Part shown: piece after piece, positions 16,900 to 31,636 of the stretch
Layout: each line of letters opens with the position of its first letter
Position numbering within the stretch: the stretch's first letter is position 1
NCBI RefSeq assembly: GCF_988243305.1
Contig: NZ_OZ547136.1
DNA: 64,000 nucleotides
Direction: 5' to 3' (one strand)
Translations under genes and position numbers: made by a program
The notes under the pieces: model-generated
What the model was told of the DNA's origin: nothing
What the model saw: only the letters and a program-made list of their open reading frames with translations
Databases searched by the model: none

Positions 16900-16918
16900 T
16901 TTCCGTAGTTTCATGGTC

Positions 16919-16938: not shown

Positions 16939-17231
16939 CCCCATTAACCACAGGCGAATTTCCGCCTTCGGTCATTCCTTAATCATCTGCGTAATCATAA
17001 TGATTATTCAGCAAGCGCAATTTTGCACTTTGCTTAAAGTTCAGCGAGTTACCGCGCCGACTTCCTCAAATTGAGGTTTCCGAAAATATCAGCGGGTTAG
17101 CGATTAAGCTGATCATTAATTAAACTGCGAAAATTTCGTAGTTTGTGACTGTCTTTCAGGCAGCTTGTTAACAGTCCTCAGAAGCGAGGGATGTAGCCAC
17201 CCATTTTTGGTCCGTCGGGAATATCAACCAG

Positions 17232-17513: not shown

Positions 17514-17526
17514 GCTGCTGACCTCA

Positions 17527-19188
17527 TTACACCCCGCTAAATTCTTCCAGTTTCTGGCGGTGGCTGTCGCTTATATCAAAAGCAAAATCCTCATGCTCTG
17601 CCTGGAATGTACCAAACGCCATCAGCGCCGCCACGCTCGGGTCTATCTTGTTCGGTGATTTTTTCTTGTTCGGCTTGATATTGGCGTTCGCGTCACTCTG
17701 CATCACGACGTTACTCATCGACCAGGACAACACCGGATCGCCACGATGCACAATCACCCTGCGGTTAACAAAAACTTCGAACGATTTCGCCGCCGGACTG
17801 AATCTGAGGTAGGTTTGCGGGAACGGCTCCACCTCAAAACCTGCCCCCTGTAATTGCGTTCTGAGATGCGTGGCGTTCCACGTATCAAAGCCCACCAGCC
17901 TGATATTAAATTTCTCCGCGTCCTGCATGATGTCATCTCTGATCCGGTCGTAATCAATGCAGTCGCCAGGCGTTGTGCGTATCCAGCCTGCTTTAGCCCA
18001 CTGACGATAGATGGCGCGGTTTTTATTGGCGGGGTTCTGTAGCTGAAATTCCGGCAGATAGTGACGGGAAACCAGCATAATGGTTTTACCGACCGGAAAG
18101 GCATAGCACACGCTGGAAATATCGCTGGTTGATGATAAGTCCAGCCCCGCGTAACACTCCTGGCCGTGTAAATCTTCCTCCGTGAACGTTCCGGCACACT
18201 CAGCCCATGCGCCGTTACCCATCCACGGGGTAGCCCCCAGGCACCAGATATTAAATCGCTTTGTCATCATCTCCACCCACTGCGACGGAATACCCCGCGC
18301 TTTCTGGATGGTTGAGGCCAGTTTTTCACGATCCACGGAAACATCAATATTAGGGTTCGCCTTTATCCACATCGCCGGATCATCAACCTCGTTTTCGTCG
18401 TCCAGTTCGTAAATCAGTACAAAAATTGAATCGTTGACCTCTTCGCCGTCCAGGATCTGGCAGCAATAATCATAGTGCTGCTTACAGGCTGAAACGACGT
18501 TACTGCCTGATGTGGTAATAGCAAATAACAGCCCTTCGGGACGTGCGCCCATCCCCAGCTCAAGCGCGGAATAAACGCCGTTATCGGGGTGCAAGTGGTA
18601 TTCGTCCACGATGGAAAGGCTGGGGTTTGTTCCCTCGATGGTTGCCGCTTTTGCTGCCAGCGGCTTTAACAGGCTGTTGCTTTTCGGGTGTATCACCTTA
18701 TGCGCCTGAATATTCACCCGCCTGCGTAACGGTCGGGATAAAAGGCACATCTGACGCGCATCATCAAAGACGATCCGCGCCTGGTCACGGCTCACCGCTG
18801 CGGTGTAAATATCCTGCTGACCGTTCTCCATAATCAGAAACCAGTTAGCCAGAATCGCGGCGGTCGTGGATTTCGCATTTTTGCGCGGCACTTCGATAAA
18901 GGCGCTCGTGTATTTGCGCCGTCCGGTGGCCTTAACCTTAAAGCCGAGGATGCACGCAAAGGCGAACTGCTGCCACGGCTCCAGCTCAATGGGTCTGCCA
19001 CGCATCGGCCCTTTTACGTGCGGGCACACCCTGGAAAAGGCAATAAACCGCTCCACAACCTCACGATCGAACGTGTAAAGGGGGCTTTCAAGGTCCGAAA
19101 AGTACCGTTTAACGGCCTGTTTCAGCCGTTTACAGGCCGGAATTTTGCCCGTTTTTACGTCTTCTGCGTACTTATTCCAGGCGGTCAA
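17527..19188 (-). CDS. terL: Terminase large subunit
   Basis: 553-aa ORF with Walker-A-like region VPRKNAKST, DEYH Walker B and a C-terminal nuclease-like half. Its position after TerS is typical of Terminase_1-family TerL. Confidence 0.88.
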   Translation of the reverse strand: MTAWNKYAEDVKTGKIPACKRLKQAVKRYFSDLESPLYTFDREVVERFIAFSRVCPHVKGPMRGRPIELEPWQQFAFACILGFKVKATGRRKYTSAFIEVPRKNAKSTTAAILANWFLIMENGQQDIYTAAVSRDQARIVFDDARQMCLLSRPLRRRVNIQAHKVIHPKSNSLLKPLAAKAATIEGTNPSLSIVDEYHLHPDNGVYSALELGMGARPEGLLFAITTSGSNVVSACKQHYDYCCQILDGEEVNDSIFVLIYELDDENEVDDPAMWIKANPNIDVSVDREKLASTIQKARGIPSQWVEMMTKRFNIWCLGATPWMGNGAWAECAGTFTEEDLHGQECYAGLDLSSTSDISSVCYAFPVGKTIMLVSRHYLPEFQLQNPANKNRAIYRQWAKAGWIRTTPGDCIDYDRIRDDIMQDAEKFNIRLVGFDTWNATHLRTQLQGAGFEVEPFPQTYLRFSPAAKSFEVFVNRRVIVHRGDPVLSWSMSNVVMQSDANANIKPNKKKSPNKIDPSVAALMAFGTFQAEHEDFAFDISDSHRQKLEEFSGV

Positions 19189-19528
19189 GCTCGTCCTCTT
19201 CTTCTGTTTCCGGTGGATTTTTACGGCGGCTTATCGGGTCAAAACCGAGCAAGGAGGCCATTTTTATCATCACCCTTTCAGCGTCGGATTTTGCGCTTAA
19301 TGCGGGGTTTCTGCTCTCGCCGCCCTGACTGTTAACAATGCTGAACCCGCGCGCCGCAAGGTCTGCAACGGCTTTCCGGTAAATGGAGTAGTTGACACAA
19401 TACAGTTCCAGATTGCTCCAGTCGGCGGGGGTCAGGTCTCCCCGTTCCGCAAGCTGCCGCGATTTTTCCCGCCACTGCTTCACGGCGATGTCATCCAGGT
19501 AGGCGGGGGCTTTCGGTGGTCTTGCCAT
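19172..19528 (-). CDS. terS: Terminase small subunit, P27 family
   Basis: 118 aa. MARPPKAPAYLDDIAVKQWREKSRQLAERGDLTPADWSNLELYCVNYSIYRKA...GFDPISRRK matches the P27/Terminase_4 pattern. It overlaps terL by 17 nt. Confidence 0.85.
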   Translation of the reverse strand: MARPPKAPAYLDDIAVKQWREKSRQLAERGDLTPADWSNLELYCVNYSIYRKAVADLAARGFSIVNSQGGESRNPALSAKSDAERVMIKMASLLGFDPISRRKNPPETEEEDELDRLE

Positions 19529-19651
19529 ACTTATTTTTTCGCCAGATTATTTTTCAAAAAATTCCCGTGCATAAAAATTTGAGGAGGCGTTCGGTGCCCG
19601 GCGGGGTCGGGTTTGTCCTGAAAACGCCCCCCACCCCGTCATACAGCCTCA
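19529..19651 (-). other. Putative cos region (GC-rich segment with nested inverted repeats between the HNH-side genes and terS)
   Basis: Non-coding 123 bp containing GGCGTTCGGTGCCCGGCGGGGTCGGGTTTGTCCTGAAAACGCCCCCCACCCCG. The HNH / gap / TerS arrangement is that of HK97-like cos phages. The cleavage site itself cannot be read from the sequence. Confidence 0.35.
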
Positions 19652-19825
19652 TCAGCGATTGCGGAAACATTCCATAACCTCGCGGTCACGGTCGGTTAAT
19701 CGCTTCGCTGTGATGCGTTCTGCGCGTCCTGACGCTTTATCTTTATGCCCTGTTTCCTGTGTCTTCCATGCGTCACGCTGCCTTATAAGTCCACGGATAA
19801 GGCGGTTTTGTTCCCGCTCATTCAT
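19652..19825 (-). CDS. Small basic hypothetical protein (57 aa), start overlapping the HNH stop
   Basis: The ATG lies inside GCTGATGAATGA, overlapping the HNH stop (coupled arrangement). Product MNEREQNRLIRGLIRQRDAWKTQETGHKDKASGRAERITAKRLTDRDREVMECFRNR is Arg/Lys-rich. It is the 3' third of the 134-aa track ORF, whose remainder overlaps HNH. Confidence 0.4.
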   Translation of the reverse strand: MNEREQNRLIRGLIRQRDAWKTQETGHKDKASGRAERITAKRLTDRDREVMECFRNR

Positions 19826-20258
19826 CAGCGTCATACATCCAGTTATTGCGGTTAGCGGACCGTTCTTCCTCTTCACGAAATCCACCTGCGGCACGCTTGC
19901 TTTTTGTTGCCGGATCAAGCCATTTCGTTTTCTGGTTATGACACGCCTGACACAATGGCTGATGGTTCCATTCGGGCCAGAAGAGAACATCATCGCCGCC
20001 ATCGATGGGGATAATGTGATCCACCACCACGGCGGGCGTATATATCCCCTTCTCAAGGCATCGCACGCATAACGGGTTTTTACTCAGATACATGGCGCGG
20101 TATTTGTCCCACTGTCTGGAGTACCCACGCGCGCGGCGGTGTCCTCGTCTGGCATCCTCTGCACGCCATGCCGCCCGCCTGTGCTCCTCACACTTACCGG
20201 ACTTAACGCGCCTGTTACAGCCTGGTTCTGTACATCGTCTTAATGGTTGCCACGGCAT
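19818..20258 (-). CDS. HNH endonuclease (terminase-associated)
   Basis: 146 aa with CxxC...VDHIIP...N...LCxxCH HNH/zinc motifs (CVRC, DHIIPIDGG, CQACHNQKT), adjacent to the terminase genes. Confidence 0.88.
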   Translation of the reverse strand: MPWQPLRRCTEPGCNRRVKSGKCEEHRRAAWRAEDARRGHRRARGYSRQWDKYRAMYLSKNPLCVRCLEKGIYTPAVVVDHIIPIDGGDDVLFWPEWNHQPLCQACHNQKTKWLDPATKSKRAAGGFREEEERSANRNNWMYDADE

Positions 20259-20554
20259 CAGTACACCCCCACATCACGGTAAGCCGTCCAGAGTGCGCCT
20301 ATCGTCATGGGTACGCGCGTTTTTGCGTTATCCGCGACAATCTGGCGATTTTCATACAGGTGAGCGATAAACATCATGCAGCCAATCTTTATGGCTGGCG
20401 TGAACTCCAGCCCGTCATCAAAGCGCCTGCCTATGTGTATCTGGCACGCCTCAAGCGATGCGGCAATGTATCCGCTGATTAACTGGTCTTCATCGTCGCC
20501 ATCGATGCGGCAATGGAGTTTCACTTCTTCCAGGGTGATAAGTTCTTCTGTCAT
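20258..20554 (-). CDS. gp6-like head-tail connector protein
   Basis: 98 aa. MTEELITLEEVKLHCRIDGDDEDQLISGYIAASLEAC... is the typical Phage_connect_1 N-terminus. The stop overlaps the HNH start (TGATG). Confidence 0.8.
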   Translation of the reverse strand: MTEELITLEEVKLHCRIDGDDEDQLISGYIAASLEACQIHIGRRFDDGLEFTPAIKIGCMMFIAHLYENRQIVADNAKTRVPMTIGALWTAYRDVGVY

Positions 20555-20889
20555 TTTTCCGCGCCCTCACGACAAAGAATTTCAAGGCGTGTCCTGGCGG
20601 CATCCGGCAACGGTTGCCCGATGATATTCAGTACACGCCCCGCCAGCGGCCCTGTATTGACCTTTATCCGACTGGTGGCGTTGATGTCCTTCCGGTAGCG
20701 TATCCATATCCTTACCGTTCCAGTCGCCAGCTCTGCACCTGATGAAATGGCCTCCTTGCTGCTGATCATGTTCACGCTTGCCCAGAGTGTGTGACCGTCC
20801 ACCCACGTTTCGAGTATTTCGCCGGTTATATCCCTGGTCTGTTTCAGGGTCTGAATCGTTACCCTGTCACGCAGTCGCCCTATGTTCAT
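20551..20889 (-). CDS. Head-tail joining (head closure/adaptor, gp7-like) protein
   Basis: MNIGRLRDRVTIQTLKQTRDITGEILETWVDGHTLWASV...VRIWIRYRKDI matches the Phage_H_T_join pattern. ATGA overlaps occur at both ends. Confidence 0.8.
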   Translation of the reverse strand: MNIGRLRDRVTIQTLKQTRDITGEILETWVDGHTLWASVNMISSKEAISSGAELATGTVRIWIRYRKDINATSRIKVNTGPLAGRVLNIIGQPLPDAARTRLEILCREGAEK

Positions 20890-22097
20890 TCCGGTTTTTC
20901 TCCCTCGCTGATTTTTACTTCCTGTTTCCATGCCTGGCTGAACTCATCACCACCATCACGCGGGGACAGCCCTTCACGTTCGCGGGCTTCGTTCGGGCAC
21001 ATAACGCCGGATTTGATGCCGCGTTCATAGGTGGCAAAGCGTTCGCCAGGTGTGGCCCGTAACAGGTCCGCGCTGTCAAACTCCACCTGATACCGGATAC
21101 CAGGTACAGGCGAGGCCACCAGCAGGGCGTTTTTTATCTGCTGCTCAAAGTTCGCCAGCCACGGGCGCATCGTCATGGTGAGAAATGCGCGGCTTGCCTC
21201 GCTGAAGTTGCTGTAGGTGCTGTTGCTGTATTCCTGCAAAAAAATCGGCGAGACGTTGAACATTCGGGCGATGTCTTCAATGGTGAAGCGACGGGAGGCC
21301 AGCCATTCGGCATCCTGATTACTCATGCCCAGCTGCTGATAGCTCATCCCCCCTTCAAGGATGGGCGTTTTTCCGGCGTTTCTGGCCCCTTTGTAGCGTT
21401 CCAGTGCGGCTAATGCCTGTTTGCCCTTCACGCCGTCCAGCCATTCGCCTGACGTGATAACCCCTGCCGCCATCATGCCATCACGCATCACGCTCGCGCC
21501 GTGGCGTTGTTGGGCCAGCCCAAGCCCCAGCGATTCGCGGCAGATGGTTACAGGTGAGCGCCCCATAAAACCGTCATCCGTGGAGTAACGAAGGTGGAGA
21601 ACCTCCCACGGTAAATAGTTGCGGGTGTTTCCGGTGTAGGCGTCAGTGATGCAGTAGCGCCAGTTATGATCACCTGTCTGCTCCACGTTCACCGACTGCG
21701 GCGGGTAAGGATGTAAAGCCACCGGAAAACCATCACGCCCCCACTGAATCACCGCATAAGCATTACCGTTTAACAGGCAGTGGCGGATCATCATTCGCTT
21801 AAACTGGTAGGGAGTCTGCCACGCGTTCGGGCGCTCGTTGAGGATGTGATCGACCGGATGAGAATCAAGCCACTCGCGGGCCTCCTTCCCCTTCTCATTG
21901 CGTACCAGGTACAGGTAACACGGCATGGTAGCCACCGCCTCAGAGATGACCGTCACGGCGTTCATGACGGCGGGCAGTGATTCCGCTGTCCCCGATGATA
22001 CGTACTCACCCGCCCCCGTGTTCGATGTGCCAGCCAGCGCCATAAACTCATCAAGCGTCATGCTGCGCTGCTCTTTTTTTCTTCTGAAAGGCCACAT
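20886..22097 (-). CDS. Portal protein, HK97 family
   Basis: 403 aa with typical HK97-type portal features (..ESLPAVMNAVTVISEAVATMP.., C-terminal acidic tail). It lies next to the protease. Confidence 0.88.
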   Translation of the reverse strand: MWPFRRKKEQRSMTLDEFMALAGTSNTGAGEYVSSGTAESLPAVMNAVTVISEAVATMPCYLYLVRNEKGKEAREWLDSHPVDHILNERPNAWQTPYQFKRMMIRHCLLNGNAYAVIQWGRDGFPVALHPYPPQSVNVEQTGDHNWRYCITDAYTGNTRNYLPWEVLHLRYSTDDGFMGRSPVTICRESLGLGLAQQRHGASVMRDGMMAAGVITSGEWLDGVKGKQALAALERYKGARNAGKTPILEGGMSYQQLGMSNQDAEWLASRRFTIEDIARMFNVSPIFLQEYSNSTYSNFSEASRAFLTMTMRPWLANFEQQIKNALLVASPVPGIRYQVEFDSADLLRATPGERFATYERGIKSGVMCPNEAREREGLSPRDGGDEFSQAWKQEVKISEGEKPE

Positions 22098-22098
22098 A

Positions 22099-22671
22099 TC
22101 ACACCCCCGCTAAATCCACCCACCAGCGGCGATTATCCGCACGCGGCATTTTTTCGGGGTGCTGCTCATACAGGGAACGGCGGGCCAGCTCCACGCCGGA
22201 ATCGGGGTAAGCCGGTACCGATGTAACGGTAATTTCGTACAGTTCCGCCACCAGCACGGTGCGCACGCATGGATCTGTTGTGGTATCCCATACATCCTTA
22301 CGGGAGCGAAAGCCAAAGCTCATCCCCGAGATGTCCCCACGCTTAACCAGTTCGATAACGTCGCGCCCTGTACTGGTATCCGGTGGGGTCAGTTCAAAGC
22401 GTAACCCTGTTTCGTCCTCTTCCAGTTTCAGCGTGCCGGAACGGGTGCGCCCCAGTAACATGCTGTGGTCATGCTCATACAGGCCGCGAACGTCATTACC
22501 CGCCGCAAGCCACTCAGTAAACGCCCCCCGCTGGAATTTTTCGTAAAACTCCCCCCATAGCAGTTCTGAAAGCTTATCCCAGCGAACAACGTAGCCCGTC
22601 AGCGTACCGGCTCCGCTGGTAGTGATTTCCGATGACCGGATTTCCATACTCTTCATAATTTTTTCACCCAT
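22099..22671 (-). CDS. Prohead maturation protease, HK97 (S78) family
   Basis: 190 aa. ..GYVVRWDKLSE...RGLYEHDHSMLLGRT...GDISGMSFGF.. is the pattern of HK97 gp4-like proteases. It sits between the MCP and portal genes. Confidence 0.85.
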   Translation of the reverse strand: MGEKIMKSMEIRSSEITTSGAGTLTGYVVRWDKLSELLWGEFYEKFQRGAFTEWLAAGNDVRGLYEHDHSMLLGRTRSGTLKLEEDETGLRFELTPPDTSTGRDVIELVKRGDISGMSFGFRSRKDVWDTTTDPCVRTVLVAELYEITVTSVPAYPDSGVELARRSLYEQHPEKMPRADNRRWWVDLAGV

Positions 22672-22710
22672 AAAACACTAAAGGGGCTTTTAAGCCCCTT
22701 CTGTATGCTG

Positions 22711-23868
22711 TTAATCGTCGTCCTGTGGCAGTTCCAGAATCTTGATCGCGTTCGAATCCACCACGCCACCGCCTAAATATTTCTGCGTGAAAATTTTGAT
22801 GAAGCCCGGCTCTGTGAGGTTGTCCGGTCTGGTGCGAACACCTGTTTCGTGATCAACAATGTAGTAACCGCGTTTGAAGTCACCCAGGGCAATAACGTTA
22901 TCCGGCATAAACTCCAGATATTCGACCGGAAGGCCCAGTAACGTATCAGGATCACCCGCCTGTAAACGGTCGCGCCAGATGTAATCACCGTTCGCGTTCT
23001 TCACCTTCTGAAGTTTTGCCGCCGTCGTGGAGTTAACCACCCAGACCGCGTTTTTGCGGTATTTTTTACGTAATGCAAATTTCAGGTCGATCAGCGGGTC
23101 CGCAGATGTCCACGCCAGAGATTCGGAAGGTTTAATTACCTGCAACGTACCAAAATCACGCTCTTTGTCGTTCTTCTCTGCACGGGGTACGGATAAAAAA
23201 CCTTTTGCTTTTTTGTCACCGTCGCCCACAACCAGATCGCTTTCTTCGGTTTCCGTGAAGGTGTCGCCAATCTCGCCCGTCAGCCATGAAAGGATGTCCA
23301 CATCGGAAAAATCCACGATTTCCTGTGTGGTGCGCGGGTACGCATAGACCGGATACAGCTTAATGCTCACCTCGTTAATCTGCGGGGTGCTGGTCTGTTC
23401 GCGTGTCTTACCCTCTTCACCGTGGTTAACGGTCGCACCGCCAGCGGAAACAAGCTGCTTAAACTCGTTGCTGCTGATTTTCTTCACGGTACAGATGCGG
23501 CGCATGGTGGACTCATCCGCCAGCATTCGCATGATTTCGGTGTTCAGTTCGGGGATAACGGTATAACCACCATCAGCGGGAACGCCTGTACTTAATGCGC
23601 GGGTTTCACCTGTCAGAATGTAGTTGCGTAGTTCTGCGGGGTCAGTGGTCTGGCTGCTTTTACCTGGCTTGCTGCGCTCTTCGTCTGCAATGGCTTCAAG
23701 GCGGGAAATGTCTTTATCGAGGGATTCAGCTTTAGCGCGTAATTCGTCAAATTTTGCGCCCTCAGCATCGTTAAGACTGCGGTTTTCTTTTTCCGCGTTC
23801 TCCAGCATGTCGCGCATCTGATTTTTAATGGCGGTTTTCTGCTGGCGTAATTCGATTATTCTCGGCAT
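22711..23868 (-). CDS. Major capsid protein, HK97 fold, with N-terminal coiled-coil delta/scaffold domain
   Basis: ATG at 23868 (MPRIIELRQQKTAIKNQMRDMLENAEKE...) is preferred over the TTG at 23913. The product is 385 aa with a coiled-coil N-terminus followed by a typical HK97-family body. Confidence 0.88.
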   Translation of the reverse strand: MPRIIELRQQKTAIKNQMRDMLENAEKENRSLNDAEGAKFDELRAKAESLDKDISRLEAIADEERSKPGKSSQTTDPAELRNYILTGETRALSTGVPADGGYTVIPELNTEIMRMLADESTMRRICTVKKISSNEFKQLVSAGGATVNHGEEGKTREQTSTPQINEVSIKLYPVYAYPRTTQEIVDFSDVDILSWLTGEIGDTFTETEESDLVVGDGDKKAKGFLSVPRAEKNDKERDFGTLQVIKPSESLAWTSADPLIDLKFALRKKYRKNAVWVVNSTTAAKLQKVKNANGDYIWRDRLQAGDPDTLLGLPVEYLEFMPDNVIALGDFKRGYYIVDHETGVRTRPDNLTEPGFIKIFTQKYLGGGVVDSNAIKILELPQDDD

Positions 23869-24083
23869 AAAAAAAAGTCCTGGGGTTAAGTAAGGAACTC
23901 CAGGACGCGGCAAACACTCAACCGTTTTTCATAAGGAAATCAGCAATCGCACCGATCGTTTTCCCGCCTGGTAATGAATATTGGCGAGCACATTAACAGG
24001 CGGGAAAGTGGCCCCAGCGTCCTGGCACCACGGGCGAGAATAATCATGATTCAGTTCGGGTAAAATATGCCGATCCGCTCAGT

Positions 24084-24110
24084 GAACAACGTGGAACAAC
24101 CACGAACAAA
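24084..24110 (+). promoter_or_regulatory. Three 10-bp-phased GAACAA units upstream of the capsid operon
   Basis: GAACAAcgtgGAACAAccacGAACAAataa lies 216 bp upstream of the MCP ATG, between the terminator at 24121-24150 and the operon. A 23-nt stretch matches 30289-30311 (inverted) with 2 mismatches. Confidence 0.55.
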
Positions 24111-24120
24111 TAATTTACAA

Positions 24121-24150
24121 AAAATAACAAAAAGCCGGATTGCTCCGGCT
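24121..24150 (-). terminator. Rho-independent terminator (minus strand)
   Basis: On the minus strand, AGCCGGAgcaaTCCGGCT is followed by TTTTTGTTATTTTTT. It lies 20 nt after the stop of the 74-aa gene. Confidence 0.8.
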
Positions 24151-24169
24151 GTATGTGCTGTATGGGTGC

Positions 24170-24394
24170 TCAGTCTCTGATCCCTTTCAGAAATTCTATC
24201 AATGCATCTGTCTGTTCAGGATTTACTGCCAGCATTTCACCGGATAGCGCGCAACGAACAAAACCATGATGATCCTTTTCAATCAGTGCGCCCGTCTCCA
24301 GGAATGCGCGGTAATCATTGATGCTCATCGTCTCCATGTTGTCAGCATGGTATTTATCACGCTGTTTTAATATCTCATCAAATTTCATCGGCAT
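24170..24394 (-). CDS. Hypothetical protein (74 aa), moron-like unit bracketed by twin terminators
   Basis: ATG at 24394 is preceded by AGAGGAAAAAACA. Product is MPMKFDEILKQRDKYHADNMETMSINDYRAFLETGALIEKDHHGFVRCALSGEMLAVNPEQTDALIEFLKGIRD. I recognise no family. Confidence 0.6.
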   Translation of the reverse strand: MPMKFDEILKQRDKYHADNMETMSINDYRAFLETGALIEKDHHGFVRCALSGEMLAVNPEQTDALIEFLKGIRD

Positions 24395-24488
24395 TGTTTT
24401 TTCCTCTGTTGTGTCTGTTTGTTTCAGATAGTAACTATGCCTGACCGTGACGAAAACCCGGTAATGCGCCATACCGTTTCAACTGGTG

Positions 24489-24513
24489 CAAAAAAAGCCG
24501 GATTTCTCCGGCT
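24489..24513 (-). terminator. Rho-independent terminator (minus strand), near-duplicate of 24121-24150
   Basis: On the minus strand, AGCCGGAgaaaTCCGGCT is followed by TTTTTTTG, downstream of the PerC-like gene. Confidence 0.8.
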
Positions 24514-24563
24514 GTGTGATTAGCTGTCCTGGTAATTGCGCCATATTTCATCACCAGCACCAT

Positions 24564-24791
24564 CTATCCCCATTTCGGCATAAGTGCGATCGACTGCCTT
24601 TTCAGGTCTCCGTAATTATCCGGTGGCTCCGGTGGCCTCTGTGCCTTCCTGGAACATTCCAGCCGTCGCATCGTGATGTGATGCCGTTCCTTGTCTGTCT
24701 CCACCAGCAGCATGACTTCACCCCATCGCGCCGACGCCCTCCGGTAAAATCCTTTAGCCTCGAGTTCCTCCGCTATGCGGTCATGTACCAT
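24564..24791 (-). CDS. PerC-family (PerC/Pch-like) transcriptional regulator
   Basis: ATG at 24791 is preceded by GGGGGTGAGG, right after the ssb stop. The 75-aa product MVHDRIAEELEAKGFYRRASARWGEVMLLVETDKERHHITMRRLEC... resembles the PerC N-terminal signature (..AE.LE.KG.WRRAA.RW..). Confidence 0.65.
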   Translation of the reverse strand: MVHDRIAEELEAKGFYRRASARWGEVMLLVETDKERHHITMRRLECSRKAQRPPEPPDNYGDLKRQSIALMPKWG

Positions 24792-24801
24792 CCTCACCCC
24801 C

Positions 24802-25212
24802 TCAGAACGGAATACCGTCACCGTAAGGGTCATCGCCTCCCGCTGGTGGCTGATTACCCTGTGTGCCTGTGGTTTTGCGTCTGTTCCCGCCAGGACGTGC
24901 CGCACGGGCACTGATTACGCTGTCTGCAATAACCTGCCAGCCCTGCCGCGTTTCTCCGTTCTGTCCGGTCCACTGGCTTACCTGCATCGTGCCGGATACG
25001 CTGGCAACATCGCCTTTTTGATGTTTAGCCAGGAAGTCGGCCTGTTTGCCAAATGCGATGACCGATAACCATAACGTCGCCTGTCCGTCCTGTGCCTGGC
25101 TGCATGGCAAAGATACCGCCATACGCGCCAGCGTCATCGGTGTGCCCTTGCTGGTCTGTTTTACCTGCGGGTCGTCCACCAGCCGCCCGTAAGCGGCTAT
25201 CTGTGCCGTCAT
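24802..25212 (-). CDS. ssb: Single-stranded DNA-binding protein
   Basis: 136 aa with an OB-fold-like N-terminus, a Gly/Pro/Gln-rich linker and a C-terminal acidic tip ..GGDDPYGDGIPF, the canonical SSB tail. Confidence 0.85.
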   Translation of the reverse strand: MTAQIAAYGRLVDDPQVKQTSKGTPMTLARMAVSLPCSQAQDGQATLWLSVIAFGKQADFLAKHQKGDVASVSGTMQVSQWTGQNGETRQGWQVIADSVISARAARPGGNRRKTTGTQGNQPPAGGDDPYGDGIPF

Positions 25213-25460
25213 AATTCCACCTCTCCGGTTTTAACGTTGATGGTTGTTACCTGTTCCGCTTCGGCAATCTCCCGTTCTGTCAGCGTGGCAAAGTTTGCCG
25301 CCGCCGTGGTCATGAATGCGCTTATCAGGTCGGGATGTTCCTTCGCGTATCCTTCCCGCGTGTGGCGGTCTATCGTTCTGATTGCCACCTTTAAAGCGTG
25401 CTCAGTCATGTCTAACGCTTTATATTTTGGCTCTGTTCTGTCTCTGCGTTTTTGGGTCAT
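25209..25460 (-). CDS. Hypothetical protein (83 aa)
   Basis: ATG at 25460 (MTQKRRDRTEPKYK...) with GAGAGG upstream is preferred over 25490, which would overlap the iterons. ATGA overlap with ssb. Confidence 0.55.
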   Translation of the reverse strand: MTQKRRDRTEPKYKALDMTEHALKVAIRTIDRHTREGYAKEHPDLISAFMTTAAANFATLTEREIAEAEQVTTINVKTGEVEL

Positions 25461-25472
25461 TTCTCGCAACCT

Positions 25473-25662
25473 CTCACTTTTTCGCCTCACTTTTTCAAGC
25501 GTCTCACTTCGTCGCAGTTGGGATTTTCGGTTTTTCTATGTGTGTGTTTCATAAGTATTTTTTTACCCCTCACTTTTGAGGATGTATACAGGTCGAAAAG
25601 TGAGGGAGAGCGGGCTAATTTTGGCCCTCTTTCTATCCCCCTCGCTTTTGCTCCTCACTTTT
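25473..25662. repeat. Iteron array (CCTCACTTTT x7, one inverted) with AT-rich core: putative origin of replication
   Basis: Copies lie at 25473, 25485, 25502, 25568, 25596 (inverted), 25640 (1 mismatch) and 25653. They flank a T-rich stretch at 25520-25565, directly downstream of the helicase gene. Confidence 0.6.
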
Positions 25663-27061
25663 ATAGCGGCGCTACATCATCCCCATCGATACGAATAACC
25701 CCATCTTTTTCCAGCTTGTACAGCCAGCGCCGGAAGTTTTTCATTTCATACCCCAGTTTTTTCATGTCATCACGTAACAGCGGGATCGTGCACTTGTCGC
25801 CGTTCTGTGTGCGTGAACGGATGCACCCCCATAGCGCGGTATGGTTTTCCGTCTTGTTCCCTGCCTCCTCGATGCGCTCCAGTTCAACAGGAGGGCGCGG
25901 ATCATCCACCACTACCAGCGACGTGATTAATTCACCGTCAGCGTCGGTAAAAAGCTCCACCACGCGTAAGTCATATGCGGCTTCTTTGAGTTCCTCCGCG
26001 TCCTTCATTTTGGTGCATGAGATAACCAGCGCTTCGCTTCCTGCGTCCTCCCTGCGTATCCGGTATTCAGCATCCAGCGAAGCACGAAATGCACTGGAAC
26101 CGCGCGCGCCTTTCGTCTCATCCTTGCCGGAATGGTGAACCACCAGCACCGTGGCCCCTGTGCGTCGTTTCAGTTCGTCACAACCACGGATAAACGCCCC
26201 CATATCACGGGAATCATTTTCATCATTCCCACCAAAGCAACGCGCCAGCGTATCCAGAATAATCATGCGTACAGGTTTACCCGTTTCCCGCTCCACCTGA
26301 CGGGCAGCGATAACCATTTCATCAACATCAAGCGGGGCAGCCGGAAAGATGGGGCGGTTTACCAGATACAGATTTTTCACCTGCTCATCGTGCACAACCT
26401 CCCAGGCTTTTACACGACGCGGAACACCTATACCGCCTTCACCAACCACATAGAGAACCGCACCATGTGCAACCCTGCGGCCTCCCCACTGGCGACCAGT
26501 GGCAACATGGCACGCCCACGATCCGGCAAGGAATGATTTATAGGACCCGCTAGCCCCGTATATGCTGCATAGCGATACCGCCGGAATAATCCCCTTAACC
26601 ACGTAATCCAGTTGCGTGTCGTATCCGGTAGATCCAACGCTCATCGGTAGCGTGGTTTTTCGCTGGTGGTTTTTTTCTTCCACCGGCTCTTTCCCGCGCA
26701 CCCGTTCCAGGTATTCGCGCCAGTTCTCCCGCATATGGCTGTGCATCCCTTCGGGGTAATAATTCGCATCAGTTACACCCGCCGCCGCCAGCTTGTGCGC
26801 AATGGCATTAATATTTGATGGCCTGATGTGGCCTGCCTTGTACAGCCGGACACAATAGCGCCCCTCGTCGATGATTCTCAGGTCTGCCAGTTCATCCAGT
26901 TGATCATCAGCCAGCACAACGGGAGGCACATTATCGCCAGCCAGTCGCCCGTCCTGTTCCTGCCACTGTTTCGCATGTGCCCAGGCATCACTACCCGCAA
27001 AAATAATGACTTCGGTCATCTTGTCGTAAGGCTGTTTTTTTAAGTTCGGTGCGCTTTTCAT
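25661..27061 (-). CDS. Replication protein: RepA/AAA_25 (RecA-like) helicase-type ATPase with extra N- and C-terminal domains
   Basis: 466 aa. Features are P-loop-like GASGSYKS, Walker B MIILDT, LVVHHSGKD and ARGSSAF motifs typical of RepA-like helicases. The C-terminal part looks like a winged-helix domain. Confidence 0.75.
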   Translation of the reverse strand: MKSAPNLKKQPYDKMTEVIIFAGSDAWAHAKQWQEQDGRLAGDNVPPVVLADDQLDELADLRIIDEGRYCVRLYKAGHIRPSNINAIAHKLAAAGVTDANYYPEGMHSHMRENWREYLERVRGKEPVEEKNHQRKTTLPMSVGSTGYDTQLDYVVKGIIPAVSLCSIYGASGSYKSFLAGSWACHVATGRQWGGRRVAHGAVLYVVGEGGIGVPRRVKAWEVVHDEQVKNLYLVNRPIFPAAPLDVDEMVIAARQVERETGKPVRMIILDTLARCFGGNDENDSRDMGAFIRGCDELKRRTGATVLVVHHSGKDETKGARGSSAFRASLDAEYRIRREDAGSEALVISCTKMKDAEELKEAAYDLRVVELFTDADGELITSLVVVDDPRPPVELERIEEAGNKTENHTALWGCIRSRTQNGDKCTIPLLRDDMKKLGYEMKNFRRWLYKLEKDGVIRIDGDDVAPL

Positions 27062-27357
27062 TTCTTGCCCCTGAATCCGTTAATCATGGTTTTCAGCTTC
27101 TGGATGTTTGCCCGTGCCCTGGCGTTGCTGGTGGGCACGTTATGCGGCGCGGTCTGTACCAGAGAAAAATCACGCCGGAACTGATAAACAGGCATCACGC
27201 AATCATATTCGTAACCTTCACGGCGGTAGGTTACGCGCCGTTCTTCCACGCCCTTAATCATTACCGTGCCGCCGTACTGGTCGCGGTAAATATCACCGCG
27301 CGTAAATTTAGGGTGAGTGTTGCCACTGGCAGTTAAGCCAGAATATTTAAGTTTCAT
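27058..27357 (-). CDS. Hypothetical protein (99 aa; possibly DUF4222-like)
   Basis: ATGA overlap with the helicase start. GDIYRDQYGGTVMIKGVEERRVTYRREGYEYDCVMPVYQFRRDF resembles a small prophage family, recalled only loosely. Confidence 0.55.
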   Translation of the reverse strand: MKLKYSGLTASGNTHPKFTRGDIYRDQYGGTVMIKGVEERRVTYRREGYEYDCVMPVYQFRRDFSLVQTAPHNVPTSNARARANIQKLKTMINGFRGKK

Positions 27358-27362
27358 TATTT

Positions 27363-27596
27363 TTATTCTCCGGTGTGCTGTTCTTTATATCTGTCGTGCA
27401 ATAGATCTATTTCTTGCAGTTCCATTATTACAGGCTCAAGAAGCGTTATTAATGCCGTGGCAATTCTTGATTTTTGTTTGTCGCGTTCATTGTCGCCAAG
27501 TGTTTCAAGCCATATGCGCAATATTTCCAGCATGTTTTCACTGTGAGAAAGTGCAAGAAATACGCGGTCTATTGTTTCGTGGTAAATATCACGCAT
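27363..27596 (-). CDS. Hypothetical protein (77 aa)
   Basis: Tightly packed minus-strand ORF (MRDIYHETIDRVFLALSH...) whose start lies 2 nt after the upstream stop. Confidence 0.5.
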   Translation of the reverse strand: MRDIYHETIDRVFLALSHSENMLEILRIWLETLGDNERDKQKSRIATALITLLEPVIMELQEIDLLHDRYKEQHTGE

Positions 27597-27597
27597 A

Positions 27598-27819
27598 TTA
27601 ATCCCCGTCCGTCGTTTTTCTTAAAATAACCTCTGTCACGAAATCAGCATAATCGGCGGCGATATTCAGTACATCAAGCCCCGTTGATTTATATTCTCTC
27701 GTGGAAAGTAAGAAAAAAGCCGCTCTAATAAGTTCTGGCATTGACGAAAGCGCATCAGCCGCATCATCAGGAACGCCGGAAAATTCCTGTTTCAGGGAAT
27801 TAAAACGATCATCACGCAT
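27598..27819 (-). CDS. Hypothetical protein (73 aa)
   Basis: ATG at 27819 lies 2 nt downstream of a G9 run (minus strand). Acidic helical protein, MRDDRFNSLKQEFSGVPDD... Confidence 0.5.
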   Translation of the reverse strand: MRDDRFNSLKQEFSGVPDDAADALSSMPELIRAAFFLLSTREYKSTGLDVLNIAADYADFVTEVILRKTTDGD

Positions 27820-28034
27820 AACCCCCCCCCATTTTCACAATCAGCAACAAGAATATTTTTAGCGTCATTCAGCGACCGCGTTGCGATGTATCGGATACAT
27901 TCCAGGGCGAACTGTGTCCGGTCTTTCTGTTCTTCTCCCTGCGCAAGCTCTGCAGTGCATTCAATATCGATAAGCGCGTGCATCAGCGTAGTGAGCGCGG
28001 CGGCTGCTGCGTCCGGTGTGGTTTTATTGCACAT
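27792..28034 (-). CDS. Hypothetical protein (80 aa)
   Basis: ATG at 28034 is preceded by AGGAGG (MCNKTTPDAAAAALTTLMHALIDIECTAELAQGEEQ...). It overlaps the icd-like 3' end by 11 nt. Confidence 0.55.
   Translation of the reverse strand: MCNKTTPDAAAAALTTLMHALIDIECTAELAQGEEQKDRTQFALECIRYIATRSLNDAKNILVADCENGGGLCVMIVLIP
27822..27830. repeat. Homopolymeric C9 (plus) / G9 (minus) tract
   Basis: Read directly: a CCCCCCCCC a. It lies in the 3' end of the 80-aa ORF and in the RBS position of the 73-aa ORF. Confidence 0.95.
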
Positions 28035-28224
28035 GGCACACCTCCTGACGAATACGGGCGGCGAATACAGCAACACAACCGGACGGGCAACGGCTACGCG
28101 CTTCGCGTTCCGTCCAGGCGGTTACGTGGATGATTTGAGATTCTCCGGCACTTAGTGCCAGAAAACGCCACACAAAGGCCGTTTGTGTGTGTATAAGGCG
28201 TGGTATATGATTTACGGCAACCAT
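28024..28224 (-). CDS. Icd-like (host cell-division inhibitor family) small protein
   Basis: ATG at 28224 is preceded by AGGAG. The 66-aa product ..FVWRFLALSAGESQIIHVTAWTEREARSRCPSGCVAVFAARI.. fits the Icd-like pattern (aromatic core, EREAR, FAAR). It is the only credible part of the 344-aa track ORF. Confidence 0.6.
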   Translation of the reverse strand: MVAVNHIPRLIHTQTAFVWRFLALSAGESQIIHVTAWTEREARSRCPSGCVAVFAARIRQEVCHVQ

Positions 28225-28312
28225 AACGGCTCCTAGTTTACGTTGTTGGTTAGACGCCCCGTATGTGTTCCCAGCACTGCGGGGCGTTGATTTTTGTGTA
28301 ATGGCAAGTACA

Positions 28313-28358
28313 ATGGTAATTACCATGTAGGTATAGTAATGAAGGGTAATTACCATGT
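28313..28358. promoter_or_regulatory. Two copies of GGTAATTACCATGT exactly 30 bp apart (first within perfect 14-bp palindrome ATGGTAATTACCAT): putative operators in a divergent control region
   Basis: Copies at 28315-28328 and 28345-28358; the second covers the start codon of the Arc-like gene. A TATAGT -10-like hexamer at 28332-28337 lies between them. Confidence 0.6.
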
Positions 28359-28528
28359 CAACACCATTAGAAAAACGTTCGCCTCCATACCAAATGCGAT
28401 TACCGGAAGACTTCAGAGCGCAGCTAGAAGAAGCAGCTAAGGCCGATGGCGACACATCTTTAGCCACTTGGATTAAACGCGTTCTCCGCAAAGAATTACA
28501 GCAACGCGGCATAGAGCCAAAAGGTTGA
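28355..28528 (+). CDS. Arc/Mnt-family ribbon-helix-helix DNA-binding protein (57 aa)
   Basis: Read manually because it is below the track cutoff: MSTPLEKRSPPYQMRLPEDFRAQLEEAAKADGDTSLATWIKRVLRKELQQRGIEPKG. The beta-strand (YQMRLP) plus two helices parallel P22 Arc (PQFNLRWPREVLDLVRKVAEENGRSVNSEIYQRV). It is one of only two plus-strand genes in the island. Confidence 0.7.
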   Translation: MSTPLEKRSPPYQMRLPEDFRAQLEEAAKADGDTSLATWIKRVLRKELQQRGIEPKG

Positions 28529-28549
28529 ATTTCAGAAGGAGATAAAATA

Positions 28550-28702
28550 ATGAACTGGCTGTTACATACCCTCCCAGGTCGCATTCTCATTGCACTAATT
28601 ATTTTATGGATTTTGTACCAATTCGGTTTTTTCGATTCGCTTTGGAAGCCTGACTGTTCCGTTAACCCTGGCGATGTACTGAAAGGCTGTAAAAATGGCT
28701 GA
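28550..28702 (+). CDS. Small single-pass membrane peptide (50 aa)
   Basis: AGGAGA RBS lies 6 nt upstream of the ATG. Product MNWLLHTLPGRILIALIILWILYQFGFFDSLWKPDCSVNPGDVLKGCKNG* has one TM helix and a two-Cys C-terminal tail. It is followed by two hairpins (28705-28719, 28735-28749). Confidence 0.6.
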   Translation: MNWLLHTLPGRILIALIILWILYQFGFFDSLWKPDCSVNPGDVLKGCKNG

Positions 28703-29057
28703 TCAGGGTTACTCCCTGTAATGCCTTTAACTGGCCCTCTTAAAGAGGGTTGGTTATCTTCGCAGCTCTCTACGTTTTTCGTCGGAACCTCTGAACCTAA
28801 GCAGTGTTGATGTTCAGGAGAACCCGAATACTGTTCGTGTTCGTTGCTCGCCAATTCTCGCGTTTCGCGATAATCAAAATGATTCAATGGGTTGAGATGT
28901 CCGTACGTTAAACGTACGCGGTTAATTTGTACATGCGAATTTCGTCGGCTCAAATTCTGCGCAACCCTGCTTGAGTTATGCAAATAGCACGCGGCTAACT
29001 CACAAGGATTTGAGCGCCCCCAAACGGGGGAGCGCAAAATTTTAGGCATAAGACGCA

Positions 29058-29771
29058 TCAGCGAATCTCCAACACTGACGATGAAGTGATCAGGCTGGCG
29101 AACGCATCCATACGGCGGGCAACCTCACGCACCGCATCGCCTGGACTCATGTCATTACGCACCGCCTCATTAAAGGCCGCCTGTTCGATTTTCTGCATCA
29201 CTACCAACAGCCCCAATTGCTGTTCGTCTGCGGTACCGCGTTCACCATCAGACAAACCAGCCACGCGGTTTTCAGCGCGGGCCAGATTGATGTAATGGTG
29301 CCGTTGTGCGCCCAGAGCTTTTAATCTGTCGCGGCTTTCGTGATAGCCAGGCAGGTACTCACGGCGGATAGGTTCTGCGGCGCGGCGCTTAGTGAATGCC
29401 TTCGTAACATCCAGTTTGAACTGGTTAATACGCTCAGGATCACGCCCTCGGGTGATACGCAGCAGATAGTCGAGCTGCGGCTCATTCAGCAGATAACTAA
29501 TCTCAGGACGCCCACGCTTTCGGCCGGATTTTCCCGATTTCAAATCGGTTAATTCCTTGAGTGACTGACGAGGCAGTGATCCCAGCTCGCGCAATCTGCT
29601 CTGGTGCGATTTAATCGTCGCGCTTAAGCTTTCATGTTGTATTCCGGCTCGCTCTGAAATAACGCGGGAATCGATACGCGGCTCCGATTTGTGATTAATT
29701 AAAATATCGCTCTGGCTGGCTTCAGGGCGAACGAATCCCCGCCCACGTTCTGGCGTATATTCAATCTTCAT
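29058..29771 (-). CDS. Phage regulatory protein, tentatively Rha/antirepressor-like
   Basis: 237 aa. The N-terminal region IDSRVISERAGIQHESLSATIKSHQSRLRELG resembles the Rha-type HTH region. The functional assignment is weak. Confidence 0.6.
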   Translation of the reverse strand: MKIEYTPERGRGFVRPEASQSDILINHKSEPRIDSRVISERAGIQHESLSATIKSHQSRLRELGSLPRQSLKELTDLKSGKSGRKRGRPEISYLLNEPQLDYLLRITRGRDPERINQFKLDVTKAFTKRRAAEPIRREYLPGYHESRDRLKALGAQRHHYINLARAENRVAGLSDGERGTADEQQLGLLVVMQKIEQAAFNEAVRNDMSPGDAVREVARRMDAFASLITSSSVLEIR

Positions 29772-29828
29772 GGTTATAGCTCTGTGTTCAGATGATTGAT
29801 GTGTGGCGGCTGCGTGCCGCCAGCGTGA

Positions 29829-30017
29829 TTAATGAACTGCCTTGCAGCTATCCTTCCAGGCCAGAACCTCGGATAAAGACCAGCCAACGGAACGACCGCC
29901 AAGTTTACGACGTGATGGGAATTGTCCGGCCTTTTCCAGGCGGTAGCGACACGTACGGCTAAGGCCGGTTAGTTTTTCGCATTCTTTTTCACGTATAAAC
30001 CGATCAGTGCTTAACAC
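29829..30017 (-). CDS. alpA: AlpA-family regulator / excisionase-like protein
   Basis: 62 aa with a GTG start after AAAGGGGG. ..IREKECEKLTGLSRTCRYRLEKAGQFPSRRKLGGRSVGWSLSEVLAW is the classic AlpA/Phage_AlpA signature. Confidence 0.88.
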   Translation of the reverse strand: MLSTDRFIREKECEKLTGLSRTCRYRLEKAGQFPSRRKLGGRSVGWSLSEVLAWKDSCKAVH

Positions 30018-30166
30018 TATTGCCCCCTTTCGTTTCTTAAAGAGTCATCAGGTGTCTTATTGTGTCGTATTGTTCCCGCTAGAGTGATAAATGGCAAATA
30101 CTGAGGATGTATGATTTACAGAAAATGAAACAGTAAGAATAAAATCTTTTAAATTCATGTTAATAC

Positions 30167-30200
30167 AAAGGCATAAAATATTGTTTCATGCCTTTTTTCT
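30167..30200 (+). terminator. Plus-strand intrinsic-terminator-like hairpin in the int-alpA spacer
   Basis: AAAGGCAT-13 nt-ATGCCTTT is followed by TTTCT on the plus strand, antisense to the island's main transcription direction. On the minus strand it lacks a T-run. Confidence 0.45.
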
Positions 30201-30288
30201 CGCTCTTTAAAGAGTGATTCGCTAGTGTATAAAAAACCAGTAACGCATTAAAAATCAGCTACTTATAAATCCGTACGCTTTTTCGCCT

Positions 30289-30342
30289 CTTGTTCGTAGT
30301 TGTTCCACATTGTTGCTCATTGTTGCACGTTGTATCTGTTCG
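30289..30342 (-). promoter_or_regulatory. Five 10-bp-phased TGTT units (complement of the AACA/GAACAA units) between int and alpA
   Basis: tgttcgtagt tgttccacat tgttgctcat tgttgcacgt tgtatctgtt. These have inverted orientation relative to the copies at 16582, 24084 and 31678. Confidence 0.55.
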
Positions 30343-30381
30343 CATATACAGTATGCGCATACTGAAAAAACACGAAAAAAA

Positions 30382-31611
30382 TTATTTTCTTCTGGCTACT
30401 GGTAGCGTGGTTACGTTTTCATGTGTTCCCGCCAGTATCCCTAACCGCTCCGTCCACATATCCAGCGCATTGCGTTTAGCATCCAGATAACGGGAATGAT
30501 TATAAACTCGCTGCATTCCTGGCATCTGGTGGCCTGTAAGCTGCTCCACGACATGCGGATCAACGCCTAAATCGTTCAGCATGGTTGTAAAGGTGCGCCG
30601 GATGTCATGCAGTGACCAGTGAGGATGATTAAGCCTCCTGTGCGCTAATCTTCCATACTGCGATACGCTGGCCTCCTGTTTCACTTCCCCCAGCAATAAG
30701 CCCGTGTGCCTGTTCTGCTCCACCAGCTGCGTGACGAACGGCAGGATCGCTTCCGGTATGGGCCGGAATATTGCGACCTTCGTTTTGCTGTGCTCCTTCG
30801 GAACGGTCCATAGCATTTCCGTAAAATCCCACTCCCCGATCTCCGATAACCTCAGTTCTACCGTTCTGGCTCCGAAGACAATCAGGAGGCGGATTAACGC
30901 GACGTAGTAAGGGGAGAATATTTTTTTGTCCAGTGCCTGCAATAATTCGCCAAGTTCTTTGTTACTTAAGACACGTTCGCTTATATCCGGTTTTTTCCCA
31001 ACGTCCGCCACGTTCAGATCGTCCAGAACGTTGCTGATTGCATAGCGCCGCCTACGGCAGAACTTAAGCGCCTGTTTGCACGCCTGTAGCACGAATCCGG
31101 CAGTAACAGGCGTTCGCTTTGCCACCTGGTCAAAACAGGCCAGCCAGTGCCGTAGCTCGCATTTATCCAGCGGCATAGCACCAATCTGCTGTATTACGTG
31201 ATTATTAAGTCGCCTTTTCAGGGCGATATAATCCACGCGGTTTTCCTTTACGTAATACTCAAGCCAGTAGGTGAGCGCATCGCCAACCGTTACGGGCTTT
31301 AACGCTTCCTGTACGGTGTAATTCATCTCATGACGTGGATTTTTCCCCTCAGCCAGCCATGTGCGACACTGTGCGGCTTTTTCCCTGGCTGCTTTCAGGC
31401 TCAGATCAGGATAACTTCCCAGCTTAATGCGTTCGGGTCGTGTCTCCCTTCCCGTTCCGGCCCTGTATGTGAAATACCAGGTCAATTTCCCTGATGTTAA
31501 ATATTTCACGCTCAGGTTTCCGCCATCACTATAAAACGTGTTTTTCTCCGCTGGCTTACCATGAAGTTTCCTTAGCAAGGTATCGCTCAGTTTGTTCATT
31601 GCTCTGCTCAC
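30382..31611 (-). CDS. int: Tyrosine recombinase/integrase, P4-type (DUF4102 arm-binding N-terminus)
   Basis: 409 aa. The N-terminal ..LSVKYLTSGKLTWYFTYRAG..IKLGSYPDLSLKAAREKA.. is typical of P4-like integrases. Catalytic residues lie in ..HDIRRTF.. and ..HQMPGMQRVYNHSRY. GTG start at 31611 (SD GAGGGGG), or ATG at 31599. Confidence 0.92.
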   Translation of the reverse strand: MSRAMNKLSDTLLRKLHGKPAEKNTFYSDGGNLSVKYLTSGKLTWYFTYRAGTGRETRPERIKLGSYPDLSLKAAREKAAQCRTWLAEGKNPRHEMNYTVQEALKPVTVGDALTYWLEYYVKENRVDYIALKRRLNNHVIQQIGAMPLDKCELRHWLACFDQVAKRTPVTAGFVLQACKQALKFCRRRRYAISNVLDDLNVADVGKKPDISERVLSNKELGELLQALDKKIFSPYYVALIRLLIVFGARTVELRLSEIGEWDFTEMLWTVPKEHSKTKVAIFRPIPEAILPFVTQLVEQNRHTGLLLGEVKQEASVSQYGRLAHRRLNHPHWSLHDIRRTFTTMLNDLGVDPHVVEQLTGHQMPGMQRVYNHSRYLDAKRNALDMWTERLGILAGTHENVTTLPVARRK

Positions 31612-31636
31612 GTTTTACCCCCTCTTTACGAAAAAG

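Follow-up and report, generated by a model that had tools for sequence, protein, structure and literature searches.

The 64,000-nucleotide stretch of contig NZ_OZ547136.1 (assembly GCF_988243305.1) analysed here, hereafter the window, contains a phage-inducible chromosomal island (PICI) of ~15.3 kb (about 16458–31796) in which short arrays of the hexamer GAACAA (TTGTTC on the opposite strand) recur; these arrays are probably the operators of the island protein AlpA. The island is a capsid-forming PICI (cf-PICI) of the EcCIEDL933 type, with genes running on the minus strand. It encodes int, alpA and rep together with an HK97-type capsid, protease, portal, connectors, HNH, TerS and TerL, and both its size (about 15 kb) and its lack of tail or lysis genes agree with this class. 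It is inserted in tqsA, an AI-2E family transporter gene, which it splits. Copies of the 9-bp att core TGCTGTTAT lie at the left junction, inside host tqsA (16458–16466), and at the right junction (31788–31796), and the AI-2E transporter domain resumes at 31809, the remainder of tqsA on the right side of the island spanning 31809–32693.

The early genes are arranged in the order int, alpA, a Rha-like gene, DUF4222, a RepA-type replicase, SSB, a PerC-family gene and a gene of 74–100 aa. By domain match, int (30382–31611, minus strand) encodes a P4-type tyrosine integrase (Int) with an N-terminal Arm-DNA-bind_3 domain. The alpA gene (29829–30017, minus strand, GTG start) encodes a 62-aa protein assigned to PF05930 (E 5e-17) and to a PHROG annotated as ‘excisionase and transcriptional regulator’, and among solved structures its nearest match is 8c3t, from the AlpA family. 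The early operon, from alpA to orf100, is predicted to end at an intrinsic terminator (24150–24133, minus strand), beyond which lies the HK97-type capsid/packaging operon, beginning with the major capsid protein (MCP) gene (22711–23868, minus strand) and continuing through protease, portal, head completion, connector and HNH genes to TerS and TerL. The island MCP is 99% identical to the capsid protein of a Shigella flexneri island, while the region upstream of the MCP gene is 96% identical to that of an E. coli O157 island (L008; related islands are given by L numbers), which also has its genes in the same order.

Four arrays of direct repeats with exact 10-bp spacing, A to D, were found in the island. 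Array B (24084–24109, minus strand; GAACAAcgtgGAACAAccacGAACAA on the plus strand and TTGTTCgtggTTGTTCcacgTTGTTC in the sense of the capsid operon) consists of three units and is located 216 bp from the MCP ATG (23868) and 24 bp beyond the early terminator. A TTGTAA box (24115–24120, minus strand), part of TTGTAAATTAT, lies 11 bp upstream of array B and forms a fourth, degenerate unit. Array C1, in the int–alpA spacer (30290–30339, plus strand; array C below), has five units (TTGTTC, TTGTTC, TTGTTG, TTGTTG and TTGTAT) starting at 30290, 30300, 30310, 30320 and 30330, with GAACAA reading toward alpA, and a weak and tentative second array, C2 (GAACAAtacgACACAAtaagACACCT; 30046–30075, minus strand), lies 29–58 bp upstream of the alpA GTG. 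The remaining two arrays are in the att arms: array A in the arm far from int (AAACAAcgtgGAACAA; 16580–16595, plus strand), with a possible third unit, GACACA, at 16600–16605, and array D in the int-proximal arm (CTACAAcgtgAAACAAgctgGAACAA; 31677–31701, plus strand), which when read on the minus strand points toward int, 66–90 bp upstream of its GTG. The original prediction, made from the DNA letters alone, had reported the position of B, the five phased spacer units, a 23-nt stretch shared in inverted orientation between B and the spacer, and related phased units in both att arms, all of which were recovered.

Several searches set these arrays apart from the rest of the window. The shared 23-mer CAAYGTGGAACAACYACGAACAA matches only 24087–24109 (plus strand) and 30290–30312 (minus strand), and was matched in none of 100 shuffles. 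The 16-mer pattern GAACAANNNNGAACAA, allowing at most one mismatch, gave eight matches versus 0.51 expected, six of them at four island loci that include 16580 and 31686 in the att arms. Three or more [GAC]AACAA units within 45 bp occur only at arrays B and C, and when the island was screened for hexamers of any sequence present in three copies at 10–11 bp, only A to D came up, besides an array of the related unit GAAACA close to the right core. A weight matrix of the 10-bp unit (consensus GAACAAcgtg), for which classical PICIs alone served as training set and which was scored on three units in phase, placed B (34.0 bits), C (31.0), D (29.1) and A (29.0) in the first four ranks of the 64-kb window, with the runner-up at 19.7 bits (null maximum 11.1 ± 3.0, highest 20.3; 200 shuffles). 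That runner-up (62329–62358) was rejected as chromosomal DNA near blr that scores within the null range. Array C2, at 10.8 bits, is also inside the null range; relatives show ACACAA units at 10-bp spacing. As B and C match the arm arrays, the same type of site is present at att and at promoter regions away from att.

Conservation of the motif in related elements was found for the arm and spacer arrays and for B. Five classical PICIs without a capsid operon, including EcCICFT073, have an array in each arm and one in the spacer, as does EcCIEDL933, and in these islands Int is 84–92% and AlpA 90–98% identical. In an alignment of the window island with six relatives, the int–alpA spacer DNA drops to 73% identity, while 3–6 NAACAA units stay in register and the 4-nt spacers between them change, a pattern expected of the footprint of a protein that reads the hexamers. 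Array C1 was found in every island with this AlpA type. The helix and wing of AlpA, (S/C)RT(C/T)RY...LGGRSVGW, are constant in every lineage with TTGTTC arm arrays and differ in lineages that lack them. The arm and spacer arrays co-occur with three unrelated Rep types (RepA helicase, DUF927 and primase family) and are present with or without PerC, suggesting that they follow Int/AlpA and not replication or cargo.

Array B is conserved in both enterobacterial cf-PICI capsid-module lineages. In the second of these it is nearly letter-identical, including its spacers and the upstream box TTGTAAATTAT, despite MCPs that are 74–76% identical and leaders that cannot be aligned, and this retention is strong evidence that B is functional. 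The TTGTAA box is the most widely conserved piece of the B region across cf-PICI lineages, and its distance to the first base of P1, the first hairpin of the capsid-operon leader, is 88–90 nt in three lineages (counted from the sequences). Array B is absent in the Symbiopectobacterium relatives.

We consider it somewhat better than an even chance that the GAACAA/TTGTTC units are AlpA operator arrays and that the copy at the capsid operon drives late expression. That the arrays are AlpA sites is the more probable part of this model, and we would call it likely; whether AlpA acts at B is evenly balanced. That AlpA is the binder, where the promoter lies and which way the capsid operon responds are our inferences. 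AlpA is a small winged-helix protein of the P4 Vis/TorI kind, a kind that serves both as excision factor and as transcription regulator. Once its expression is triggered, it would bind the arm arrays of two to three units, near the putative 12-bp Int sites described below, give the excisive intasome its shape and, with Int bound to the 12-mers, drive excision. Through the five-unit spacer array and the weaker C2 it would positively regulate its own gene and the early operon that follows. At B and the degenerate TTGTAA unit, roughly 50–90 bp upstream of the presumed leader start, AlpA would switch on late transcription, either as an activator that brings RNA polymerase to a weak promoter or by letting polymerase pass a terminator-like hairpin (P3) just before the capsid gene.

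Published work agrees with parts of this model. The EcCICFT073-type AlpA activates its own promoter (PMC6092414), and AlpA is required for the excision and induction of PICIs, including EcCIEDL933 (PMC6092414, PMC11773190, bioRxiv 10.1101/2022.09.08.507074). Moreover, cf-PICIs make DNA-filled capsids in non-lysogens and do not need a helper phage (bioRxiv 10.1101/2025.02.11.637232), which implies that the factor acting at the capsid operon is encoded by the island or by the host. A late activator supplied by a helper phage was considered and is disfavoured, as capsids form in non-lysogens.

A number of observations weigh against AlpA as the common regulator. No array was found upstream of the morphogenesis genes in classical PICIs, although their AlpA is 90–98% identical. 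B also occurs in islands with an Int of 41–47% identity and a long-form AlpA (92–94 aa, 49–58% identity, with a different wing), and these islands have no arrays at the arms or at alpA. The AT-rich, more distant cf-PICIs (MCP 68–71%) have only TTGTAAAT and one TTGTYC unit, followed by CATGTTT repeats; among those with a long-form AlpA, a TTGTYC array upstream of alpA was found only in L083 and L084, which are closely similar loci, and is not general. In the lineage with AlpA at 66% identity, the position of array C holds (A/G)AATATCG three times (L016, 1959–1986; L047 and L057, 1291–1318), so that AATATCG, instead of TTGTTC, lies upstream of alpA. In addition, B has the opposite orientation to C1 relative to the downstream gene, a consensus scan found no sigma-70 promoter near B, and AlpA had no effect on Pint in EcCICFT073 (PMC6092414), even though array D lies upstream of int. 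The absence of B from classical PICIs and its presence in long-form-AlpA islands mean that one motif, read by one protein for three functions, does not hold as a general design, contrary to what the original prediction had proposed. As a separate observation, L016 has a further TTGTTC array just downstream of alpA (2551–2576).

In the classical PICIs L003 (9252–9507), L004, L006 and L007, the morphogenesis genes are preceded by two terminators and then by conserved repeats, TTTGCAAC ... ATTGCAC ... AATGCAATC, of the TTGCAA/TGCAAT type, with no GAACAA arrays. This arrangement points to a different late-control input in these islands.

The alternative that survives best is that the arm and spacer arrays are AlpA sites, while B is bound by something else, either an island protein that is kept along with the capsid module or a host factor, in which case the likeness of B to the other arrays would reflect shared ancestry or recombination and not shared regulation. 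We regard this as a reasonable but less likely reading. It would account for B following the capsid module through at least five AlpA classes and for its absence from classical PICIs with the same AlpA. It would also fit the TTGTAAAT box, which is the most conserved piece in all cf-PICIs and is missing from the other arrays, and the spacers CGTG and CCAC, which are identical in B of the window island and in the spacer array of L006 and L007, as would be expected of a copied segment. However, no alternative DNA-binding protein is common to all B-bearing islands and missing elsewhere: PerC is missing in L001, the Rha-like gene and the Rep types vary, and the Arc-like protein is not universal. 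B is also the top match in the window to a matrix built from the arrays of AlpA modules. Furthermore, the S-R-x-x-R-aromatic core of the recognition helix is still present in the long-form AlpA homologues, and the capsid modules across AlpA classes are 96.7–98% identical, suggesting recent exchange in which a 26-bp site has not yet decayed; the objection from long-form AlpA therefore weighs weakly.

A second alternative, that the GAACAA arrays are the arm-type sites of the Int N-terminal domain, is improbable. Int does have an Arm-DNA-bind_3 domain, and the arrays lie in both arms in direct orientation, but the att core is 7.7 kb away from array B and 1.4 kb away from array C, and each arm offers a better candidate. 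Each att arm contains a 76-nt direct repeat made up of the array, about 15–20 bp, and a tandem pair of 12-mers, AATGACTACACC AGTGACTACACC in the left arm (16539–16562, plus strand) and two copies of AGTGACTACACC in the int-proximal arm (31635–31658, plus strand), with the general form A[AG]TGACTACACC occurring twice per arm. In a sister lineage (Int 66–76% and AlpA 66–69% identical) both copies of the 12-mer change, from GGTGTAGTCACT to GGTGTAGTTAAT or TGTGTGGTCAGT, while the TTGTTC arm arrays are unchanged and the helix and wing of AlpA are constant; likewise, the arrays remain constant where the N-terminal 100 aa of Int fall to 64–77% identity. The P4 record annotates, in each arm, ‘attP arm sequence repeats’ of 12 bp in tandem, the same layout as that of the 12-mers here and unlike that of the arrays. 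The change of the 12-mers with the Int lineage and the shared plan with P4 both indicate that the 12-mers are probably the Int arm-type sites and that the GAACAA arrays would be sites of an AlpA-type excision factor. Direct repeats one helical turn apart, beside Int arm-type repeats in both arms, give the arms the excision-factor-like organisation that the original prediction had envisaged.

It is more improbable still that the arrays are replication iterons read by the island Rep in the manner of the P4 ori and crr. The P4 type 1 iteron, TGTTCACC/TGTTCACA, also has a TGTTC core, and PICI Rep proteins are distant relatives of P4 alpha (PMC6092414), yet identical arrays accompany all three Rep types. 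Islands taken to have a DUF927-type Rep carry, separately, a P4-like inverted pair of CTGTTCACCACTGTTC, 146 bp apart and 1.2–2.3 kb upstream of MCP, and the window island has its own candidate iterons beside rep (25478–25662). The CTGTTCACCACTGTTC pairs were located in L016 (5985/6131), L022 (8151/8297), L039, L046, L047, L049, L057, L067 and L069, and their closeness to the P4 type 1 iteron TGTTCACC suggests that they are probably the origin of those islands. In the window island, three copies of TTTTnCnCCTCACTTTT (25478–25494, 25561–25577 and 25646–25662), 83–85 bp apart, occupy the gap just downstream of the replicase gene and make it a candidate for the origin of replication.

That the arrays are a functionless product of chance or low complexity is scarcely credible, for although 10-bp-period TTGTTC arrays occur in many unrelated viral contigs, mostly without an AlpA-like gene nearby, the arrays here stand out from the shuffle controls, keep their positions in relatives with diverged flanks and are limited to four intergenic control regions of the island. 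An exact-pattern scan of IMG/VR for three TTGTTC units returned many unrelated arrays, with an AlpA-like open reading frame (ORF) in the retrieved flanks only at PICI loci, and therefore gives no independent support for a link between AlpA and TTGTTC.

If AlpA acts at B, it would do so upstream of an RNA that is itself conserved. What the original prediction treated as a 216-bp spacer before MCP is a structured leader with a terminator-like hairpin, conserved across lineages: the 195 nt upstream of the MCP ATG fold at a minimum free energy of −67.1 kcal/mol (z −3.7 versus shuffles), and fold energies and comparison with relatives define a leader of three hairpins (23869–24031, minus strand). 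P1 (24031–24008) has the loop GACG, P2 (24007–23960) has an outer stem of 11 bp, and P3 (23906–23877), which covers the only AGGA, is followed by U8 (23876–23869) directly before the AUG, so that P3 and U8 together (23906–23869) resemble an intrinsic terminator within the leader ahead of the first gene. The P1-P2-P3 layout is present in six other cf-PICI lineages (z −1.8 to −5.9), five of which share the P1 loop GACG while one has GGCG. The inner helix of P1 shows three compensatory pairs (CCAG/CUGG versus CUCA/UGAG), and the P2 sequences are unrelated among lineages yet always pair. The terminator-like P3 with its U-run occurs in the W-type leader only; in five AT-rich lineages P3 spans GGAAAC near the start codon and has no U-run, and in the L001 type P3 has a different pairing. 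Every lineage has a P1 segment that can base-pair with the 5′ arm of P3, here CCAGGACGC (24025–24017) with GCGUCCUGG (23908–23900) and in other lineages AGACGUGA with UCACGUCU, and forcing this pairing opens P3 at a cost of 6–9 kcal/mol. An Rfam search found no family at or near threshold for the window or for the two intergenic regions.

The original prediction had also placed the promoter of the capsid operon at B. The conservation of B upstream of the MCP leader speaks for a functional site there, but no sigma-70 promoter was predicted at B. Picked by eye, −10-like hexamers (GATTAT, TATGTT and TATATT) lie 7–8 nt before P1, and with a start there the three B units would centre near −54, −64 and −74, within the range of upstream activators. 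By eye again, array B would span −51 to −76 if the −10 is GATTAT (24045–24040), and the last B unit would serve as the −35 if it is TATTTT (24067–24062). A more speculative extension, which we hold to be doubtful, is a two-part device at the capsid operon, in which the phased array loads or recruits AlpA and the three-hairpin leader RNA forms the second part. P3 would form a terminator and/or hide the ribosome-binding site, and the P1 segment would pair with the 5′ arm of P3 and open it. AlpA might then be a processive antiterminator, or else the leader might be an independent riboregulator that sets helper-independent capsid production; such a device, as such, may not have been described before. 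In either form, the conserved leader RNA is a possible post-initiation layer of control and a less expected feature than the arrays.

A close parallel in overall plan is P4, a satellite with a P4-type integrase and the AlpA-family protein Vis/ORF88, which is 45% identical to the island AlpA. P4 has three tandem 10-bp repeats 146–175 bp upstream of vis, labelled ‘ori type 2’ in its record, but their sequence, CCACTTAAAG, differs from the island units, and P4 has no capsid genes. Vis is reportedly needed for P4 excision (Cali et al., 2004) and is said to regulate the P4 late promoters (Polo et al., 1996). Delta/Ogr activates the late promoters of P4, and the island has no evident counterpart of this activator.

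TorI, an AlpA-family excision factor (PMC11773190) of the prophage KplE1 module that is also found in HK620 and Kapi1, recognises GTTCG-type units beside the IntS arm sites, with 2 nt between the units in a block of three, and these sites also regulate the promoter PintS (PMC2951348). The likeness lies in the protein family and the site layout: TorI represses int, whereas the PICI AlpA activates and left Pint unaffected in EcCICFT073, and TorI sites are reported on attL only, with none known at a late operon. Apl of phage 186 and Cox of P2 likewise have two roles, binding both at att and in a promoter region through direct repeats spaced by one turn of the helix (PMC7498355, PMC3936717), but their protein families are different, their main action is to repress the lysogenic promoter, and they control no capsid operon in cis. 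The Pseudomonas aeruginosa antiterminator AlpA, which shares the Pfam family name, acts on operons whose first gene directly follows an intrinsic terminator (PMC7969949), and the island leader similarly ends in a hairpin and U8 before the AUG. The Pseudomonas element is, however, a single GGGACGN5GGTA between −35 and −10, unlike the phased array upstream of the promoter in the island, and a comparison of the island AlpA with the solved AlpA–RNA polymerase complexes found no sequence similarity at E<1.

Among the PICIs themselves, EcCIEDL933 resembles the window island in gene order and content, and EcCICFT073 has the Int/AlpA module, including its arrays, in common with it. These two relatives sit between phoQ and roxA and the window island in tqsA, with Int nevertheless 91% identical; the window island has a RepA-type replicase in place of DUF927. 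In HK97-type systems cos is expected between hnh and terS. The position of a cos site was not located in the cf-PICI literature that we found.

The early-operon terminator (24133–24150) appears also to mark a boundary of module exchange between islands, as BLAST coverage has breakpoints there (at about 24129–24155). Two terminator hairpins, 24129–24155 and 24492–24518, which are 93% identical (AAAAAGCCGGATT[GT]CTCCGGCTGT), flank the gene at 24472–24170 (phrog_1957), and in other genomes the module borders coincide with the downstream terminator copy (24129–24155), which suggests that repeated terminators bound a cassette and that recombination swaps modules there. Island L002, of a cf-PICI lineage with long-form AlpA, sits between two truncated prophage genes for the terminase large subunit, a helper-embedded configuration, and in L002, L055, L058 and L060–L062 a second AlpA/Xis-like gene adjoins int in all six. 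An MCP-profile scan of genomes of the species, which used narrow peptide patterns, returned five loci.

Other features of the island include a perfect 16-bp palindrome, CAGTATGCGCATACTG (30349–30364), between the int stop codon and C1, which is kept in closer relatives and missing in EcCICFT073. Between C1 and alpA, a hairpin with a T-rich tract (AAAGGCAU...AUGCCUUUGUAUU; 30168–30195, minus strand), in which relatives show compensating changes, would terminate int or else belong to a leader ahead of alpA as its terminator. A small Arc-like gene of the YlcI/YnfO family (28355–28528, plus strand) runs in the opposite direction to the rest of the island, relatives have a gene with the same annotation at the matching position, and the 344-aa minus-strand ORF that overlaps it (28024–29058) looks spurious.

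AlpA is the master switch of Gram-negative PICIs, and a definition of its operator would make the coupling of excision, autoactivation and capsid production testable. Our literature search found no mapped AlpA binding site for any PICI, so that the motif and its four locations constitute a useful and testable prediction, and the motif also offers a sequence signature with which to annotate the att arms and late promoters of these islands. A self-encoded capsid operon tied to excision would be a new instance of an old principle. The operator could show how recombining capsid modules plug into different regulatory backbones and, if the model is true, it would explain how cf-PICIs produce capsids without a helper phage.

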